Shown here in pieces: positions 8,283 through 22,430 of a stretch of DNA of 64,000 nucleotides (position 1 is its first letter; every line of letters starts with the position of its first letter). Under the pieces are notes generated by a model. That model worked only from the letters and a program-made list of their open reading frames with translations, was not told where the DNA came from and did no database searches. Origin of the DNA: Escherichia coli (GTDB lineage Bacteria; Pseudomonadota; Gammaproteobacteria; Enterobacterales; Enterobacteriaceae); the NCBI RefSeq assembly GCF_022846255.1, contig NZ_AP025682.1, one strand, 5' to 3'. Position numbers and translations under genes: made by a program.

Positions 8283-9653
<1,371 letters not shown>

Positions 9654-14077: not shown

Positions 14078-14968
14078 ATGGCAATGGTCCAACCGAAATC
14101 GCAAAAAACACGTTTGTTTATTACTCACCTGCTACTGCTACTTTTTATCGCGGCGATTATGTTCCCGCTACTGATGGTCGTCGCTATCTCACTGCGCCAG
14201 GGGAACTTTGCGACCGGCAGCCTGATCCCGGAGCAAATCTCCTGGGATCACTGGAAACTGGCATTAGGTTTTAGCGTGGAACAGGCTGATGGTCGCGTTA
14301 CACCGCCGCCGTTTCCGGTACTGCTATGGCTGTGGAACTCGGTAAAGGTCGCCGGGATTTCCGCGATTGGCATTGTGGCGCTCTCCACCACCTGCGCCTA
14401 CGCTTTCGCCCGTATGCGCTTTCCAGGCAAAGCGACGCTGCTGAAAGGAATGCTGATTTTCCAGATGTTCCCGGCAGTACTTTCACTGGTCGCGTTGTAT
14501 GCGTTGTTTGATCGTCTGGGTGAGTACATTCCATTCATTGGCCTGAATACTCACGGCGGCGTAATTTTCGCGTATCTGGGTGGGATTGCGCTGCATGTCT
14601 GGACCATCAAAGGCTATTTCGAAACCATCGATAGTTCGCTGGAAGAAGCGGCTGCGCTGGATGGTGCGACACCGTGGCAGGCCTTCCGCCTTGTCCTGTT
14701 GCCGCTGTCAGTACCGATTCTGGCGGTGGTGTTCATCCTGTCGTTTATCGCTGCTATTACTGAAGTTCCGGTCGCATCGCTGTTACTGCGTGACGTAAAC
14801 AGCTACACCCTGGCCGTGGGGATGCAGCAATACCTCAACCCGCAAAACTACCTGTGGGGTGACTTTGCCGCTGCTGCCGTGATGTCTGCATTACCGATCA
14901 CCATCGTCTTCTTGCTGGCTCAACGCTGGCTGGTCAACGGCCTGACGGCAGGTGGTGTGAAAGGTTAA
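14078..14968 (+). CDS. malG: Maltose ABC transporter permease MalG, 296 aa
   Basis: Translation [60 protein letters not shown]; EAA motif region [21 protein letters not shown]. Confidence 0.95.
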
Positions 14969-15039
14969 AGATGTTGTTCTGCCAATGTTATGCCGCTGCA
15001 CCCTCAACTTACGTTATCCCAACTTGTGACTGTTATTCG

Positions 15040-15061
15040 GCGCTCCACGGAGCGCCTTTTT
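15040..15061 (+). terminator. Rho-independent terminator after malG (ggcgctccacggagcgcc + T7)
   Basis: Perfect 7-bp stem GC hairpin followed by ttttttt at 15055..15061, lying in the 94-bp convergent spacer between malG and psiE. Confidence 0.65.
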
Positions 15062-15472
15062 TTACTCCCGCTTCAGCCGTTTCGAATTACATAACCACAG
15101 GGTGATCACCAGTAACAGGATCGCAGCCGAGTAGATCAACACATCCAGTGGCGATTTATGATCGACGATGATCAAGCGCACAATGGCGGTGATCCCAATA
15201 TAGACAAAGTAACGTAGCGGGAAGTGAAAACCGGACTGAAAGTACTTCACAATCAGCGCGATAAATTCGAAATAGAGAAAGTAAACCACCAGCCCTTCTA
15301 CCAGCTCATATTTGCTGGTTTGTTCTGGCGCGAACAGCACATCAGCCAGATGCACCGTTTCTTTGCCGAGGAAGACAACCAAAATCAGGCCGAGGCACAG
15401 CAGGCCAAGATTGAGTACGGTCTGCAAAATGGTGGAGATAAACTCCACGCGCGGACGAGAGAGTGACGTCAT
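15062..15472 (-). CDS. psiE: Phosphate-starvation-inducible inner membrane protein PsiE, 136 aa
   Basis: ORF track 15062..15601; start moved to [38 protein letters not shown] matching remembered PsiE; 4-TM protein. Confidence 0.9.
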
Positions 15473-16011: not shown

Positions 16012-18108
16012 TTAGCGGAAATTGACGCTACGGTCGCTGGTCATGTCATACAACTGGAACTTACGCCCAAGTTGCTGACCACCGTCACGCGTCAGCGGCG
16101 TCCAGCCAATTGCCGCACGGCTGCGTGTCGGGCCAGACGAGAAGAGATCCAGCGGTACAGAGACATACACGCCTTTGGTGAAGTCCCCTTCGCCGTACTC
16201 CTCTTTTGAAACATTAGTGATCGTGGCATAGCCACCCACCACCACGCCGCTATCAAAGCGTTTGGCGATCTCCAGCGTGCCGCCTTTATCCCCAGCCAGA
16301 TACTGCCCGACGCTCGCTTTCACTAACACATCCTGAGCGAAAGATGGCGTCCAGTAGGCGGTCAGATGTCCGGTTTTCACGCTGTAGTCGGTGAATTTCA
16401 TCATATCTTTTGCACTACGCCAGTCGCGCTGTTTAACGTAGTTGGCATCCACACCAAACGCCCAGTTGCTGTCCAGCGGGCGATACAACACTTCTGCCCC
16501 CGCACCGCCAAACATGGTTTCGAGATAACCTCCGTAGACCTGACCGTAGAAGCCGTTGCCCAGATGCTGGAAGTAGTTGGCTTGCAGGTTATTCACATAG
16601 ACATCGTTCTGCACATACTCGCGCACATGGGTACGCACGCGCGGTAAGTGCGAGTCCTGCGGCGGATTGGTGTAGTTAAACTTGTCGTAGTTGTTGGCAA
16701 GGTTAGCAAACAGACTGCCGGTGGTCAGCAGATGGTCCGTCAGCCACAAATCCGCCGTTCCCATCACGCCCAGCTGATACATGTAAAAGTTTTCCGGGCC
16801 ACCGACCGACTGGTTCAGCACCGGATCGATATGAAAATCAAAGCGCGATTTGTCGATATACCAGCCCTGCTCGGTGGACTTCGGAACCACTGGCTCGACG
16901 CGTTTTTGCGCCAGCTTCGTTTCGTGGCCCAACGGCTCTCCGGCGAGATGATTTTTCAGGCTGGCGACATCGGTTTCCGTCGTCACCTGCGGCATGTTAA
17001 GGCGATTTTCCGTAATGCGGATCGTTTTGATCCCATCCGGTAGATCGTTCATCACGATCCGATTAGCACGGATGATCCCTTCGCGCGGATCACGATATTT
17101 CACCTGCTCGCCGGTAACATACAGCGTATCGCCTTTCGCCTGGATCTGCGGATCGGCAAGTCCTGCATTGTATTTCAACAGCGTTAACTGATTCGCCACC
17201 ACCGAATGCTGCAAAATGGCATCCTGCGGCTGCGGTTGATATTGCGGGCGGGCGTTATCGTTGTAAGACGGGCGCAGATCGTTAAAGTTGGTGCGCAGCG
17301 TGACGCCAAACATAAAAGTGTTGCCACGTTCATAGCTAAGGTTAACGTCGGCCCAATCGGTAACGCGATAAATCGCCCCGACGTTAAACTTACTTTTTTG
17401 CTCCAGCTTTCCGGCAAAATCCTGCTGATAATTATTGCCTTCATACTCCAGTTTCAGACGCAGCGGTTGCCAGGGCGTCTGGTATTCCACGCCGCCAAAC
17501 AGTGAGGCCGGGCCGTGGAACATCTGGCTGCCGTCGATAGATCCCGCCTGTTTGTAGCTGTTATCGCGATAGCAATATTTATCACTGGCTGAACAGAGCG
17601 GATTTTTCACGTTACCGCTAGTGCCCAGATATCCCCAGCCCAGGCCGAGTGTAAAATCGAACGGCCCCCAGGCTTTGCTGGCAACAAGATATTCCGCATC
17701 AAACAGCCCCGTACCGCCGATATCCCGCGCACCAACCGCCACTTGCGGCAGCCAATAACTCTCTTCCCACAAACGCAGTTTGAGATCGAAGGCTTTATCT
17801 TTATACGTTTGATCGCCAGAGAACGCTTCGACGCTGCTGTACTGCCGGGTGCGCACGTCGGTGTAGCGCAGCGTTGTTTCCAGCCACGGGAAGAGTTGCA
17901 CTGAAGCTGAGTAATAACGGTACTGATCGTTATCGCGATAGTTCAGGCTCAGCTCCCCTTCCCGCGCCATGCGCGCGGTGGGCGTTTGTAATAATCCTAC
18001 GCCACCGAAATCCGATTGCGACGGACCAATGGGCGCAGGATATGTTTCGCCGTAGCAAGCTGTGCTAATGCCCAGCGCCAGTAAGCTAAGCAGATGTCTT
18101 TTTTTCAT
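16012..18108 (-). CDS. yjbH: YjbH, predicted outer-membrane beta-barrel/lipoprotein of the yjbEFGH exopolysaccharide-associated operon, 698 aa
   Basis: ORF track 698 aa with signal peptide [20 protein letters not shown], ends ...SVNFR (aromatic C-terminus typical of OM proteins); gene order yjbE-F-G-H conserved. Confidence 0.85.
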
Positions 18109-18845
18109 TATTGGGGTATCCGCTGCGTCAGAGTCTGAAGAATGTCGGCGTTAAGGGCATCAGGTGTCTCACTCCAGACGGAGTCCGCGAGGCCAACATA
18201 AATAATGCTGCCGGGCATCGGCTCTACGTGACGCTTGTTCCAGTAAGCCACCGGCGCTTTTTGCGTGCGTCCGTCCGGGTAAACCACCCACGCGTAGCTG
18301 CGATCCGCACCGCTGAGCAGGCTCTGGTCAGAGAGATAGCTCGCCACGTCGCGACCTGGAATGAATGGCTGCTTGCCAGGACGACTGATAAGCCCGAACA
18401 ACGTGACCGTGGACGGCGGCGTTCCGACCCACAGCGTGTAGTTGCCCTGCAACGGCGGGTTACCGCGTTCGGCAACGCGGACGATATCAGGATCAAGATT
18501 GATTTTTTGCCTGCCCGTCACTTTCAACGCCTGAATTTGCTGGCGTAAGGCGTTAATCGCGGCGGCATCGTCGGCGCTGGAGTCTGCAGCCAGTTCTGCC
18601 AGCCGTGTCAGCAACGCCTGCTGCTGACGCAATGCAGCCGCCGTGGCCAGCTCTTCGCTAATCACCGCTCCGGGCCACCAGCTGTTTGCCAGCCGCGGTT
18701 GGCCTACCAGATCGATTAAATGCTCTGCGCCCGTCAGCGTTTTGGCCTCACTGCTGCCATTGCTGAACACCTTGACGGTTCCCGCCGCGAAGACTGATGA
18801 CGCCCCCGCACTCAAAAGCAACGCGACAATAGTTTGTTTAATCAT
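18108..18845 (-). CDS. yjbG: YjbG, secreted protein of yjbEFGH operon, about 245 aa
   Basis: ORF track 18108..18941; start set at [20 protein letters not shown] (signal peptide); overlaps yjbF stop by 4 nt (translational coupling). Confidence 0.8.
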
Positions 18846-19480
18846 TGTTTTGCCGCCTTGATGAGGGTGGTTTTCACCGGGAAGTAATCCGCGCCAAGAT
18901 ACTGTTCCGACTGGCGAATTTGCCCTTCGCTGTCGATCCAATAGCGGTTATGCCAGCGCGCCTGGTCAGTGAAGACTTCTTCGTCCAGCACGCGAACCGG
19001 GGTTTCATCGCTGCCGACTTTGACGGTATCGGTGCCATTCCATTTGAAGACTGAGCGCGCGGTGGCGTAGCGTACCTGCTGGTACTCGGTCCAGCCCATC
19101 GTGCGCGTCCAGGTTGCACCATCAATGATTTGTGCGGGTTTAATCAGCGGGTCGGCGGCAAGGTTATTCACTTCAATCAGGTTGTCGCCGCCAAGCAAAG
19201 TCTTCACCAGACGACCATGTTGTGTGACAAGGGTGGCCTGATCCTGAGTGACCCATTTTTGTTGTCCGTCTTCAGCGAAGGCCAGCACCACAAATAACTG
19301 CGGCCCGCCATTAAGCTGCATGTACTGGCTGGCGTAGGGCATATTTTGAATATCATCGTCCGTCAGCTGTACGCCTGGCGTACCGAACAGACTGTCCCAC
19401 AGTGAATTGCCCAGCTCTTTAGTCGTGGCTGAACAGGCCTGTAATAGCAGGCAGATAAGAATGAGTGCTGGTCGCTTCAC
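18842..19480 (-). CDS. yjbF: YjbF, predicted lipoprotein of yjbEFGH operon; start approximate (GTG)
   Basis: ORF track 18842..19510; lipobox LLQAC near N-terminus (ALILICLLLQACSATTKELG); both ORF-track start and my chosen start are GTG codons. Confidence 0.8.
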   Translation of the reverse strand: MKRPALILICLLLQACSATTKELGNSLWDSLFGTPGVQLTDDDIQNMPYASQYMQLNGGPQLFVVLAFAEDGQQKWVTQDQATLVTQHGRLVKTLLGGDNLIEVNNLAADPLIKPAQIIDGATWTRTMGWTEYQQVRYATARSVFKWNGTDTVKVGSDETPVRVLDEEVFTDQARWHNRYWIDSEGQIRQSEQYLGADYFPVKTTLIKAAKQ

Positions 19481-19593
19481 GACTCTTCTCCAGAGGGGCA
19501 GAATAACCACACCGGAGTGTGGTTATGGTAAATCCCTTCATACTTCAAGTCACAGATGCGATGACTCGAATTATTTTGGGGATGCATACTTTA

Positions 19594-19836
19594 TTACTGG
19601 GTACTGGTGGTCGTGGTTGTGGTGGTCCCGGTATTAGAACCATCACCGCCACCGGTTGCCGCGAGCGCGACACCCACCGCCGAGCTTACGGTGCTGACGC
19701 TGGTCGCGGAGGAACTACCCGCCGAAACCGACGTTGCTGCCGCCCCTGCCGCTTCGCCCACCTGTACAGGTGCAGCCCACGCAGAAGTCGCCGCAAGCGC
19801 AGATATGGCAAAAATGCCATACAGAACTTTTTTCAT
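19594..19836 (-). CDS. yjbE: YjbE, small secreted low-complexity Ser/Thr/Ala/Gly-rich protein, 80 aa
   Basis: Translation [80 protein letters not shown]; signal peptide plus poly-Thr tail. Confidence 0.8.
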
Positions 19837-20138
19837 AACAATTTCCCTTCATTGAATGAATGGAGATTTACCCAAAACATTTCGGGCGGGATCGAGTATA
19901 CACAACTAAAGCATGCGAATTACGGCGCGGGGAATTAGTGATGGAGTTTTAGGACAATTGGAATGAATATCAAATATAAGCTTTGACTTATATATAAATA
20001 ATATTAAAAATCATGAAGTTAAAATAAAATAAAAAGTAATTAATCTGCGTATTTTCCGAAATCAACCACGATTAAAAATTTATTTTAGGATTAACCTCAC
20101 TGTATGATTTTCGTTAAATGACAGACAAGAGGATTTAT

Positions 20139-20177
20139 CTGATAAAACAATGCCGACTTATAGTCGGCATTGTTTTT
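20139..20177 (-). terminator. Hairpin caatgccgac-ttata-gtcggcattg flanked by A and T runs; candidate bidirectional terminator downstream of pgi
   Basis: 10-bp perfect stem; T-rich tract follows on the minus strand (pgi direction), T5 follows on plus strand. Confidence 0.5.
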
Positions 20178-20243
20178 AAGGCTATTTAATCAATCGTACT
20201 ATGTATTAATTGCCGAATACGATGTACATATCGGCATCGACCT

Positions 20244-20320
20244 GTAGGCCTGATAAGACGCGACCGCGTCGCATCAGGCATCGGTTGCCGGATGCGGCGT
20301 GAACGCCTTATCCGGCCTAC
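20244..20320. repeat. Two REP units (BIME) immediately downstream of pgi
   Basis: gtaggcctgataagacgcgaccgcgtcgcatcaggca and ttgccggatgcggcgtgaacgccttatccggcctac. Confidence 0.8.
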
Positions 20321-20333
20321 ATATCGACAATGA

Positions 20334-21983
20334 TTAACCGCGCCACGCTTTATAGCGGTTAATCAGACCATTGGTCGAGCTATCGTGGCTGCTGATTTCT
20401 TTATCATCTTTCAGCTCTGGCAGAATACGGTTCGCCAGTTGTTTACCCAGCTCCACGCCCCACTGGTCGAAGGTGAAGATGTTCAGGATCACGCCCTGAG
20501 TAAAGATTTTGTGCTCATACAGCGCAATCAACGCCCCCAGGCTGAACGGAGTGATTTCACGCAGCAGGATGGAATTGGTCGGGCGGTTACCTTCGAACAC
20601 TTTGAACGGCACCACGTAGTCAAGCGTTGCCGGATCTTTACCCTGATCACGATATTCCTGCTCAACCACTTCGCGGGATTTACCAAACGCCAGCGCTTCG
20701 GTCTGAGCAAAGAAGTTAGACAGCAGTTTCTGGTGATGATCAGAGAGCGGGTTATGGGTGATAGCCGGAGCGATGAAATCGCACGGTACCATTTTGGTTC
20801 CCTGGTGGATCAGCTGATAGAACGCGTGCTGACCGTTCGTGCCAGGTTCACCCCAGATAATCGGGCCAGTCTGGTAATCCACAACCTTACCGTTACGGTC
20901 AACATACTTACCGTTGGATTCCATATTGCCCTGCTGGAAGTACGCCGCGAAACGGTGCATATACTGGTCATACGGCAGAATCGCTTCAGTTTCCGCGCCA
21001 AAGAAATTGTTGTACCAGATGCCAATCAGCGCCAGCAGTACAGGCAGGTTTTTCTCGGCAGGCGTGGTGGAGAAATGCTTGTCCATCGCGTGTGCGCCAG
21101 AAAGCAGTTCAACGAAGTTATCAAAGCCGATGGAGAGAACAATCGACAGGCCAATCGCTGACCACAAAGAGTAACGACCGCCGACCCAGTCCCAGAACTC
21201 GAACATGTTGGCAGTATCAATACCAAACTCGCCAACGGCTTTGGCGTTGGTTGAGAGCGCCGCAAAGTGTTTCGCAACGTGCTTCTCATCACCTGCCGCT
21301 TTCAGGAACCAGTCACGCGCGCTGTGGGCGTTGGTCATGGTTTCCTGAGTGGTGAAGGTTTTAGATGCTACCAGGAACAGCGTGGTTTCCGGGTTTACTT
21401 TTTTCAGCACTTCCGCGATGTGAGTCCCATCGACGTTAGAAACAAAGTGCATGTTCAGGTGGTTTTTGTATGGACGCAGTGCTTCAGTCACCATGTACGG
21501 GCCGAGGTCAGAACCGCCGATCCCGATGTTCACTACGTCAGTGATTGCTTTGCCGGTATAGCCTTTCCACTCACCGGAAATAATCGCTTCCGAGAAGGTT
21601 TTCATCTTCTCCAGCACCGCGTTGACTTCCGGCATAACATCTTTGCCATCAACCAGAATCGGGGTATTGCTACGGTTACGCAGCGCTACGTGCAGTACGG
21701 CGCGGTTTTCAGTGCGGTTGATCTTCTCGCCAGAGAACATCGACTTAATCGCGCCCGCCAGATCGCACTCTTTCGCCAGATCTTGTAATTTCGCCAGCGT
21801 CTCTTCAGTGATGCGGTTTTTGGAGTAATCCACCAGCATCTGATCGTCGAAGGTTGCGGAGAACTTAGAAAAACGATCGCCGTCTTTAGCAAAAAGATCG
21901 GCGATCGTAACGTCTTTCATTTCATCGAAGTGTTTCTGTAGTGCCTGCCAGGCAGCGGTCTGCGTTGGATTGATGTTTTTCAT
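20334..21983 (-). CDS. pgi: Glucose-6-phosphate isomerase Pgi, 549 aa
   Basis: ORF track 20334..21989; start at [72 protein letters not shown]; full-length match to remembered Pgi. Confidence 0.97.
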
Positions 21984-22204: not shown

Positions 22205-22430
22205 CTACCTGCGCTAGCGCAGGCCAGAAGAGGCGCGTTGCCCAAGTAACGGTGTTGGAGGAGCCAGTCCTGTGATAACACCTGAGGGGGTGCATCGCCG
22301 AGGTGATTGAACGGCTGGCTACGTTCATCATCGGCTACAGGGGCTGAATCCCCTGGGTTGTCACCAGAAGCGTTCGCAGTCGGGCGTTTCGCAAGTGGTG
22401 GAGCACTTCTGGGTGAAAATAGTAGCGAAG
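22205..22430 (+). promoter_or_regulatory. Lysine riboswitch (L-box) in lysC 5' leader
   Basis: Leader contains conserved L-box segments (agaggcgc...gtaacggtgttggaggagcc...ctgagggggtgcatcgccgagg...) upstream of lysC ATG at 22508; position and motifs as known for E. coli lysC. Confidence 0.75.

Follow-up and report, generated by a model that had tools for sequence, protein, structure and literature searches.

The yjbEFGH locus of an Escherichia coli genome: AT-rich control region, invariant spacer palindrome and a conserved threonine tail in YjbE

Four co-oriented genes, in the order yjbE to yjbH, were identified from an ORF map and Pfam searches of the window, i.e. the whole 64-kb stretch of Escherichia coli DNA that was analysed, and were assigned to the YjbE, YjbF, YjbG and YjbH families, with Pfam matches far above the cut-offs for all four proteins (table 1). 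The yjbG start overlaps the yjbF stop, and the yjbG stop overlaps the yjbH start. The operon extends from the yjbH stop at 16012 to a putative transcription start at about 19888, and its control region reaches up to about 20180; the span marked in the original prediction (18842-20140) is narrower, holding yjbF, yjbE and no more than a part of the upstream DNA. According to the ORF map and the RefSeq annotation of matching genomes, pgi lies on one side and yjbT/psiE on the other, and both this position and the Pfam assignments confirmed the earlier naming of the locus as yjbEFGH. In the source strain xylE was absent nearby, unlike in K-12.

Table 1. Features of the yjbEFGH locus (positions in the window; strand of the window).
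Feature	Position	Strand	Description	Evidence
yjbH	16012..18108	-	698-aa outer-membrane protein, YjbH/GfcD family	Pfam PF06082, 899 bits
yjbG	18108..18845	-	periplasmic GfcC-family protein	Pfam PF20616 and PF06251
yjbF	18842..19480	-	212-aa lipoprotein, GTG start, lipobox LLQAC	Pfam PF11102, 211.8 bits
Spacer palindrome	19504..19525	-	TAACCACAC-N4-GTGTGGTTA, 22 nt; RNA core stem CCACAC/GUGUGG, then short U-rich tract	
Second spacer hairpin	19544..19570	-	inside a lineage-restricted segment of about 50 bp	predicted fold
yjbE	19594-19836	-	80 aa, secreted, Ala/Ser/Thr/Gly-rich	Pfam PF11106, 113.7 bits
Conserved C-terminal motif of YjbE	19597..19656	-	includes the seven-Thr run	residues 62-79 invariant or nearly so, 55 species
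5' UTR hairpin	19870..19887	-	GCCCGAAAUGUUUUGGGU, at putative mRNA 5' end	
Putative -10	19895..19900	-	TATACT, in almost invariant block TTGTGTATACTCGA	21-genus alignment
Proximal RcsB half-site	19947..19954	-	TCCTAAAA, centred about 62 bp upstream of putative start	sequence match
Inverted half-site copy	20052..20061	-	TTTTAGGA in most genera, degenerate TTTCGGAAAA in E. coli	alignments
RcsAB-box-like site	20086..20099	-	TGAGGTTAATCCTA; includes second exact TCCTAAAA (20083-20090)	
STnc430 match	20032..20181	+	opposite yjbE; ends in hairpin common to pgi	Rfam RF02053 (sRNA)
Two-way terminator hairpin after pgi	20146..20174	both	AACAATGCCGAC...GTCGGCATTGTT; U-rich tracts on both strands	

The locus is the stress-induced yjbEFGH exopolysaccharide operon known from earlier work on E. 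coli. For this species the operon, its control by Rcs and the exopolysaccharide link are textbook-level knowledge, and there is nothing new in the locus itself. Gene order, Pfam families, the position between pgi and psiE and the conserved upstream blocks are those of the K-12 operon, reportedly described by Ferrieres et al. (2007) and Ionescu & Belkin (2009). YjbE was identical to its K-12 counterpart (WP_000757333.1) at 79 of 80 residues, with Ala here against Ser at residue 32 and an identical threonine tail. An 861-bp region comprising yjbE and upstream DNA was about 95.6% identical to K-12-type strains, the differences being at strain level only, and just 16 records matched it at 99% identity or more. 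yjbE with its upstream stretch was found in 5,403 of 5,426 complete E. coli genomes, where the genes are annotated yjbE/yjbF. An origin of the window from E. whittamii, in which YjbE is identical, was rejected at an overall identity of only 93.8%.

PDB relatives were 2IN5 (YmcC, i.e. GfcB; E = 1e-42) for YjbF and 3P42 (GfcC; E = 6e-56) for YjbG, and sequence searches of the PDB returned no relative of YjbE or YjbH. YjbH has been described as a two-barrel protein with a FapF-like N-terminal half, FapF being an amyloid transporter, and a PgaA-like C-terminal half (PMC9603273). None of the four proteins has a model in NCBIfam. The biochemical roles of the Yjb products are still undefined in the literature (PMC8592465, PMC11494523), in agreement with the original prediction.

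Upstream of yjbE, the segment 19940-20230 (291 bp) had a GC content of 26.8%, compared with 0.528 for the whole window; it is the most AT-rich stretch of the 64 kb, matched in GC content by only 0.016% of 291-bp windows, and is the sole region of the window below 33% GC. Small ORFs in this AT-rich spacer were rejected as compositional artefacts. The strong AT-richness had been noted in the original prediction and linked there to H-NS silencing; the base composition, the sole feature here that bears on such silencing, would fit it. No direct link between H-NS and yjbE was found in the literature searched. Expression of the operon is RcsA-RcsB-dependent in K-12 and Salmonella and strongly stress-induced (PMC5461412, PMC3599342, PMC5651002), with a log2 induction of about 5.7 by colicin M (PMC3599342; PMC5461412). 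The activation by envelope stress that had been proposed for this DNA agrees with that dependence and with an RcsAB-like box and half-sites predicted within the AT-rich DNA.

The sequence TGAGGTTAATCCTA is the sole match in the window to TRAG-N5-TCCTA, and it agrees at 10 of 14 positions, T..AG and TCCTA included, with the RcsAB box consensus TaAGaatatTCctA, as reported by Wehland & Bernhard (2000). It also holds exactly the canonical RcsB right half-site TCCTAAAAT (preprint 10.1101/2025.05.13.653802). With 4 mismatches to the RcsAB 14-mer, the site escaped a search that tolerated no more than 3; it was located by phylogenetic footprinting and the core pattern. The surrounding block TGAG.TTAATCCTAAAA is almost invariant across 21 genera, and the block around the proximal half-site is likewise conserved across genera in the 21-genus alignment. 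Only two exact copies of TCCTAAAA occur in the 64-kb window, both within 19947-20099. Unlike the RcsAB box to which it was compared, the predicted yjb site lies about 200 bp upstream of the putative start and is accompanied by two additional half-sites.

No good -35 hexamer was present before the yjbE -10, as expected of an activator-dependent promoter. The hairpin at the putative mRNA 5' end had 97.3% of its cells paired across 21 genera, compared with at most 73% in slid controls, and five of its seven pairs change only in ways that preserve pairing. Under envelope or osmotic stress, RcsA-RcsB would activate transcription from this promoter with its conserved -10 and no good -35, using the RcsAB-like box and the two further half-sites upstream.

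The same AT-rich DNA carries, on the opposite strand, a full-length match to the Rfam sRNA family STnc430 (78.7 bits; gathering score 47), and 15 of 20 other genera have a syntenic match (47-164 bits). The conserved AT-rich part could be mainly an independently functioning sRNA gene, read in the direction away from yjbE up to the terminator shared with pgi, and not in the first place control DNA of yjbE. Besides the synteny and the score, this explanation is favoured by the end of the match, a good hairpin followed by a U tract, and by a partly conserved -10-like TAAAAT (20020-20025) that precedes the model's 5' end by 7 nt. The stem of the pgi terminator differs in sequence between genera and keeps its self-complementarity. 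Against an sRNA gene, no covariation was detected in the main helix of STnc430 in a 15-species alignment, where 75.8% of cells were paired; the shuffles averaged 78.3%, and 468 out of the 500 equalled or exceeded the real alignment; RNAalifold gave no meaningful consensus fold on this alignment (-1.2 kcal/mol). Each of the two arms carries either TCCTA or TCTGA irrespective of the other, and both coincide with the inverted RcsB half-sites, a third copy of which lies outside the RNA. The one plus-strand promoter-like hit of a promoter and terminator scan, which returned no terminator (TTGACT-17-AAAAAT, 19983-20011), was discarded, as it is not conserved in K-12, and the two papers found to mention STnc430, one dealing with plant lncRNAs and the other surveying sRNAs of Herbaspirillum, do not concern enterobacteria. 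The sRNA gene is therefore regarded as possible though doubtful. At least in part, the match may instead represent regulatory DNA, with the Rfam family overlapping RcsB binding motifs and drawing no covariation support; the two readings are not exclusive, and an sRNA would be compatible with control of yjbE.

An exact copy of the 22-nt palindrome between yjbE and yjbF, free of any stem substitution, was present in 79 of the 80 species loci as well as in two distant operonic and three E. coli loci; the remaining species locus starts within yjbF. The window has no second match to the pattern, and none of 100 shuffles produced one. Its loop was only ever UUCG, UCCG, UACG or UGCG (38 species spacers and the window), with GAUC in one distant operon, and the spacer folds with z = -4.66. 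The U tract that follows is short, reading UUAUUUUG in most genera and an interrupted UUAUUCUG here, and a simple terminator scan did not call the hairpin (19504..19525). It probably acts as a leaky intrinsic terminator or as a 3' stabiliser of the yjbE transcript, and so probably makes YjbE more abundant than YjbFGH, the palindrome setting the ratio between them. Since the hairpin never varies, there is no covariation to show action as RNA, and the invariance could equally mean a DNA operator. The segment of about 50 bp that contains the second spacer hairpin is missing in E. coli EC-1639 and in most genera, where the spacer measures about 63 nt. An Rfam match to isrH at 19534-19580 (22.7 bits; gathering score 45) was dismissed as chance.

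YjbE covers positions 1-79 of the 79-position PF11106 profile with its residues 1-79, at 113.7 bits compared with a gathering score of 27.9. A Sec-type signal peptide was recognized at residues 1-21 (...SAWA|AP), leaving a mature part of 59 aa that starts APVQ. ORF, signal peptide and profile match thus bear out the earlier description of a low-complexity secreted 80-aa peptide, and most of what was described there is found at the coordinates given. Comparison with other genera gave dN/dS of about 0.02-0.15, and only one of the ungapped comparisons showed YjbE to be less conserved than YjbF. AlphaFold2, run on YjbE alone with a 30-sequence alignment, returned a helix at residues 41-61 and a coiled tail at low confidence (pLDDT 53).

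Seven threonine codons (ACC ACC ACA ACC ACG ACC ACC) occupy 19606-19626 on the minus strand and are followed by AGT ACC CAG TAA; the run had been placed at 19606..19630, correct within one codon. The longest perfect run is two ACC units, so that the tract is not a long perfect tandem repeat. Neither exact YjbE sequence (80 or 82 aa) was found in a 15-billion-protein collection, and a word-indexed protein search gave mostly frameshifted fragments; alleles were therefore counted on DNA. The original prediction held that the tract could vary by slippage and proposed a comparison of its length across E. coli genomes. Among the 5,420 complete genomes of E. coli, about 98% had exactly seven threonines. 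Nine threonines (+6 bp) were found in 103 of the 5,420 (1.9%), on at least three flanking haplotypes, and twelve (+15 bp) in one (0.02%); there was no allele shorter than seven, no six- or eight-threonine allele and no length other than seven, nine or twelve. In a sample of 60 genomes spaced evenly along the ranking, 58 gave an ungapped alignment over an 86-bp segment around the tract. Across 55 species of other enterobacterial genera, each of Thr71-77 was a single amino acid encoded by two to four synonymous codons, and the C-terminal motif with seven threonines followed by ST was retained in homologues of 45-60% identity, the motif ending in ST[Q/R].

General length variability was thus largely not borne out, and what survives of the slippage proposal is a small set of rare in-frame expansions. 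Each of these duplicates a 6-bp or a 15-bp unit of the tract, and the mixture of ACC, ACA and ACG codons leaves only these imperfect repeats to be duplicated; occasional slippage is weakly supported on this basis.

The ACC/ACN run might nevertheless be a slippage-prone, strain-variable repeat that tunes a surface property, as in contingency loci such as those of Haemophilus and Neisseria, with which it shares a short triplet repeat in the gene of an exported protein and rare unit-duplication variants. The nine-threonine allele on several haplotypes suggests recurrence or recombination, and a mucoid clone that evolved in the laboratory under Myxococcus predation carried +9 bp in yjbE, at a position within the gene that is not given (PMC8540638). 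Such a role is very improbable: the yjbE repeat is imperfect, one length dominates in E. coli, the unit is a triplet, so that changes of length stay in frame and cannot turn the gene on or off, and the tract is invariant across genera despite synonymous codon variation, which points to purifying selection and not to diversification. Judged by its constant length, invariant residues and synonymously varied codons, the threonine tail is a conserved protein motif under protein-level selection and not a contingency repeat.

Also very improbable is that yjbE owes its conservation to its nucleic acid, for example to an antisense gene lying over it or to an RNA structure, and not to selection on the peptide: dS is lower in yjbE than in yjbF (0.44-1.0 vs 0.95-2.6), yjbE is the most conserved 200 bp in comparison with E. 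whittamii (99% vs a mean of 93.8%) and long opposite-strand ORFs lie over it at 19519-19938 (139 aa) and 19607-19855 (82 aa), but nearly all yjbE codons vary synonymously with the amino acid fixed, the yjbE frame alone stays open in 23 of 23 orthologues checked while antisense and alternative frames hold stop codons in most of them, and a codon composition of GCN/ACN/AGY would be expected to leave antisense frames open, so that these ORFs were set aside as compositional artefacts.

The products of the operon are, in order, a small Sec-exported YjbE, a GfcB-like outer-membrane lipoprotein (YjbF), a periplasmic GfcC-like protein (YjbG) and a large GfcD-like outer-membrane barrel (YjbH). The 5' hairpin would head the yjbE message, and the spacer hairpin with its short U tract would stand behind yjbE. 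Much of the transcription stopping there, or RNA being protected there, would yield YjbE in excess over YjbFGH, as the 5' hairpin and the invariant spacer hairpin with its U tract together suggest. From such an excess, a pattern typical of a structural subunit or cargo and not of an enzyme, we infer that YjbE is most likely a cargo or partner of YjbF-G-H. In the periplasm or outer membrane, it would be an abundant partner or cargo of a YjbF-G-H complex, with the threonine tail serving as a fixed-length recognition, strand-forming or modification segment.

By analogy, the layout resembles that of secretion operons in which the subunit comes first (chaperone-usher pili, curli, Fap amyloid): a small first gene with a signal peptide, its product perhaps abundant, then a hairpin, then genes whose products are a lipoprotein, a protein of the periplasm and an outer-membrane barrel. 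The FapF-like N-terminal half of YjbH (PMC9603273) may extend the analogy to the Fap system. It is no more than an analogy: YjbE is unrelated in sequence to pilins, CsgA and FapC. Neither a fibre nor secreted YjbE is known to have been reported.

Closer at hand is the gfc operon (PMC8592465), in which GfcB, GfcC and GfcD are clear homologues of YjbF, YjbG and YjbH and which likewise has a small first gene, a spacer with a hairpin and then overlapping genes; unlike yjb, it continues into wza/wzb/wzc-type genes. GfcA, a threonine-rich inner membrane protein, is laid out like YjbE: a signal peptide that ends in AAP is followed by a hydrophobic stretch rich in Gly/Ala/Val, by GDG and by an end rich in Ser/Thr (...NTSTTTSTTR in GfcA). 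GfcA differs in having an extra Thr-rich N-terminal part and no seven-threonine run. No homology of the mature proteins was detected (BLASTP E = 65; hhalign aligned the signal peptide only), and GfcA gave no Pfam hit, PF11106 included. The poly-threonine tail would be a key element for functional studies of the uncharacterised YjbE and GfcA.

Of seven distant YjbE-family genes examined, five stand alone, with no yjbFGH next door, so the peptide appears to have no strict need for an adjacent export machine. These stand-alone genes have terminator-like GC-rich hairpins with T runs directly downstream. A more specific proposal, which we hold only tentatively and consider rather unlikely as a whole, is that PF11106 peptides form a distinct class of Sec-exported envelope peptides of about 60 aa, whose near-invariant threonine tail would be a fixed-length module, either an O-linked glycan acceptor anchoring the 'Yjb exopolysaccharide' or a beta-strand threading or plugging the FapF-like YjbH barrel. 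If the class is real, stand-alone copies with the same tail would imply that the module functions independently of adjacent YjbFGH.

Experiments on this envelope system, which is poorly understood, could be guided by these details. Whole-operon deletion is also reported to be mucoid in an rpoS mutant, as cited in PMC8540638, and this runs counter to a simple model that attributes the stress to a build-up of YjbE. Mucoidy or colanic-acid overproduction accompanies mutations in yjbE, yjbF, yjbG or yjbH, or IS1 inserted between yjbE and yjbF, and was read by the authors as Rcs activation (PMC8540638, PMC8117528). Mutations in the system come up repeatedly when mucoidy, resistance to predation or resistance to sedimentation is selected for.

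Within the window the ORF map gave the gene order malF, malG, psiE, yjbT, yjbH, yjbG, yjbF, yjbE, pgi and lysC. YjbE, YjbF, YjbG and YjbH each hit their own Pfam family with very high scores, and solved structures were matched by YjbF (GfcB, 2IN5) and YjbG (GfcC, 3P42). An 861-bp stretch of yjbE plus upstream DNA was found in 5,403 of 5,426 complete E. coli genomes, in which yjbE and yjbF are annotated. The locus is the already known yjbEFGH operon, correctly recognised in the original prediction; the span given there, 18842-20140, included yjbF and yjbE but covered just part of the control region. YjbE carries a typical Sec signal peptide (21 residues before cleavage at AP), leaving a low-complexity mature protein of 59 aa made up almost entirely of Ala, Ser, Thr, Gly and Val.

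Features of yjbE, its upstream region and the yjbE-yjbF spacer, ordered towards and through yjbE; conservation refers to the 21-genera alignment unless stated
Feature	Position	Strand	Details
pgi terminator hairpin			first block; stem sequence varies by genus, self-complementarity kept
Rfam RF02053 STnc430	20032-20181	+	full-length, 78.7 bits (gathering score 47)
RcsAB-box-like TGAG.TTAATCCTAAAA	20083-20099		sole match in window to core TRAG-N5-TCCTA
inverted copy TTTTAGGA			between the two direct copies; degenerate in E. coli
second direct copy ..TCCTAAAAC	19947-19954		conserved block
nearly invariant block TTGTGTATACTCGA			putative -10 TATACT at 19895-19900
5' UTR hairpin	19870-19887		97% pairing maintained via wobble-compatible changes
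invariant stretch TCCATTCATTCAATGAAGGGAAAT			upstream of ATG
yjbE	19594-19836	-	80 aa
seven successive Thr codons	19606-19626	-	ACC ACC ACA ACC ACG ACC ACC
upstream spacer hairpin	19544-19570		in segment of ~50 bp
downstream spacer hairpin	19504-19525		palindrome TAACCACAC-N4-GTGTGGTTA, between yjbE and yjbF

Length of the Thr tract within E. coli was assessed with an 86-bp query around it, which matched 5,420 of the 5,426 complete genomes. The expectation that the tract varies by slippage proved mostly wrong: of 60 records taken at even intervals along the ranking, 58 aligned gap-free, and the tract was constant apart from a rare +6 bp allele with nine Thr (103 records, 1.9%, all encoding the same 82-aa protein, WP_021575443.1) and a single genome with twelve Thr, from a 15-bp tandem duplication. 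The nine-Thr allele lies on at least three flanking haplotypes, which suggests recurrence or recombination; in one group the tract is now (ACCACA)x3. Synthetic queries for eight-Thr and six-Thr alleles gave no ungapped match among the complete E. coli genomes, and nothing returned by the twelve-Thr query scored below its one exact match and above the nine-Thr alleles; ten- and eleven-Thr alleles are thus apparently absent. A +9 bp insertion in yjbE, its place within the gene not stated, has been reported in a mucoid laboratory-evolved clone (PMC8540638).

Conservation between species was examined in 80 loci fetched from other enterobacterial species. Thr71-77 did not vary among the 55 orthologues that are exactly 80 aa long, with two to four different Thr codons per position, and the GGGDGSNTG just before the run was equally fixed. 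Genera with a YjbE of 81-83 aa differed solely after the Thr run, Kluyvera excepted (TTTTTSTTTST), and the C-terminal pattern GGG[DN]GS.TG-T7-ST was kept even in homologues at 45-60% identity. The dN/dS of yjbE against other genera was approximately 0.02-0.15, and YjbE was at least as conserved as YjbF in all ungapped comparisons but one. By these comparisons the protein motif formed by the Thr tract is conserved and has a minimum length, and rare expansions of it are tolerated; a contingency repeat was rejected on the near-constant length within E. coli and the invariance between species. Synonymous divergence of yjbE from E. whittamii was unusually low (dS 0.03, with 0.29 for yjbF; nucleotide identity of yjbE 99%, against a mean of 93.8%), which could be a sign of codon bias due to high expression or of an extra RNA constraint.

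The DNA upstream of yjbE is strongly AT-rich, as predicted: 19940-20230 has 26.8% GC versus 52.8% for the window, and nowhere else in the 64 kb does GC fall below 33%. Silencing by H-NS may also operate here, a possibility with which the AT-richness agrees. Alignment of 21 genera resolved conserved blocks set apart by unconserved, always AT-rich DNA (table). No good -35 was found in the block carrying the putative -10. Exact TCCTAAAA occurs twice in the 64 kb, both times here, and TCCTAAAAT has been called the canonical RcsB right half-site in a preprint that also names yjbE as a candidate target of an osmotic activator (10.1101/2025.05.13.653802). The proposed envelope-stress-activated promoter is supported by these RcsB half-sites and the RcsAB-like core, together with published RcsA-RcsB dependence and stress induction.

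The Rfam match to STnc430, an sRNA family, runs opposite yjbE, inside its control region, and has a syntenic counterpart in 15 of the 20 other genera. The main helix of the family is made up of inverted RcsB half-sites, the arms of which change between TCCTA and TCTGA independently of one another. No covariation was detected in the helix across 15 species (75.8% of cells paired, versus 78.3% in shuffles), and RNAalifold gave no consensus fold for the alignment. Judged on sequence, conservation of this region is better explained by putative protein-binding DNA; a divergent transcript may nevertheless arise from the STnc430 strand, as a -10-like TAAAAT lies 7 nt upstream of the 5' end of the model.

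The 113-nt yjbE-yjbF spacer folds far better than shuffles (z = -4.66). Its downstream palindrome was exact, with no stem substitutions, wherever an operonic locus took in the spacer, namely in 79 species, two distant operons and three E. coli loci. The loop was only UUCG, UCCG, UACG or UGCG in 38 species spacers and the window, whereas one distant operon had GAUC there; downstream of the stem comes a short tract rich in U. After stand-alone YjbE-like genes the hairpins are of another kind, GC-rich and terminator-like, with T runs. The palindrome is probably a leaky terminator or 3' stabiliser, which would raise YjbE above YjbFGH. Alternatively it may be read sequence-specifically, as a DNA operator or protein-bound RNA, because the stem is completely invariant, beyond the needs of a plain RNA hairpin. 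The spacer is polymorphic (19530-19580): the segment carrying the upstream hairpin is present in the window and K-12 and absent from E. coli EC-1639 and most genera, and the sequence of strain 317 differs after TTCGAGT, where it resembles an ERIC-type repeat insertion.

Taken together, yjbEFGH is an Rcs-activated operon encoding a secreted peptide and a set of lipoprotein, periplasmic protein and outer-membrane barrel homologous to GfcBCD. GfcD is bound by GfcB and GfcC according to PMC8592465, as cited in PMC9603273, and two barrels are predicted for both YjbH and GfcD, the N-terminal half resembling FapF and the C-terminal half PgaA (PMC9603273). Mucoidy or colanic-acid overproduction accompanies mutations anywhere in the operon, or IS1 between yjbE and yjbF, and was attributed by the authors to Rcs activation (PMC8540638, PMC8117528). 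YjbE is probably the abundant partner or cargo of the YjbFGH complex, and its Thr tail, of fixed length, would be used for recognition, for forming a strand or as a site of modification. This reading drew no help from AlphaFold2, whose model of YjbE by itself was uninformative (pLDDT 53).

A further caveat to this role is that five of seven distant YjbE-family members examined were stand-alone genes; those at L091, L092/L093, L094, L097 and L098 are 45-56% identical, have no adjacent yjbFGH and share the T7-ST type tail. One stand-alone gene has lambda-J-like tail genes as neighbours, and next to a second lies a divergently oriented GerE/LuxR-type regulator gene. Sequence comparison of mature YjbE with GfcA detected no homology; downstream of gfcA, as of yjbE, there is a hairpin-bearing spacer. 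Directly upstream of K-12 gfcA lies IS1 (9202-9290 of the fetched locus, L090), the insertion already known to disrupt the gfc operon promoter.

Window 19480-20340 (yjbE plus upstream) is a minority haplotype, with at least 99% identity in just 16 of about 5,400 records and approximately 95.6% in K-12-type strains. A REP element pair at 20247-20317, between pgi and the terminator (Rfam naRNA4, both strands, 79.5 and 54.8 bits), is missing from EC-1639; it is a dispersed repeat, since megablast found a median of 38 places per genome. At 14968-15062 malG abuts psiE, without the xylE that lies between them in K-12; this is a common lineage polymorphism, as the same junction occurs in 1,786 of 5,426 complete genomes. 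A lysine riboswitch (RF00168, 99.5 bits) was found upstream of lysC at 22220-22416 (+), as expected.
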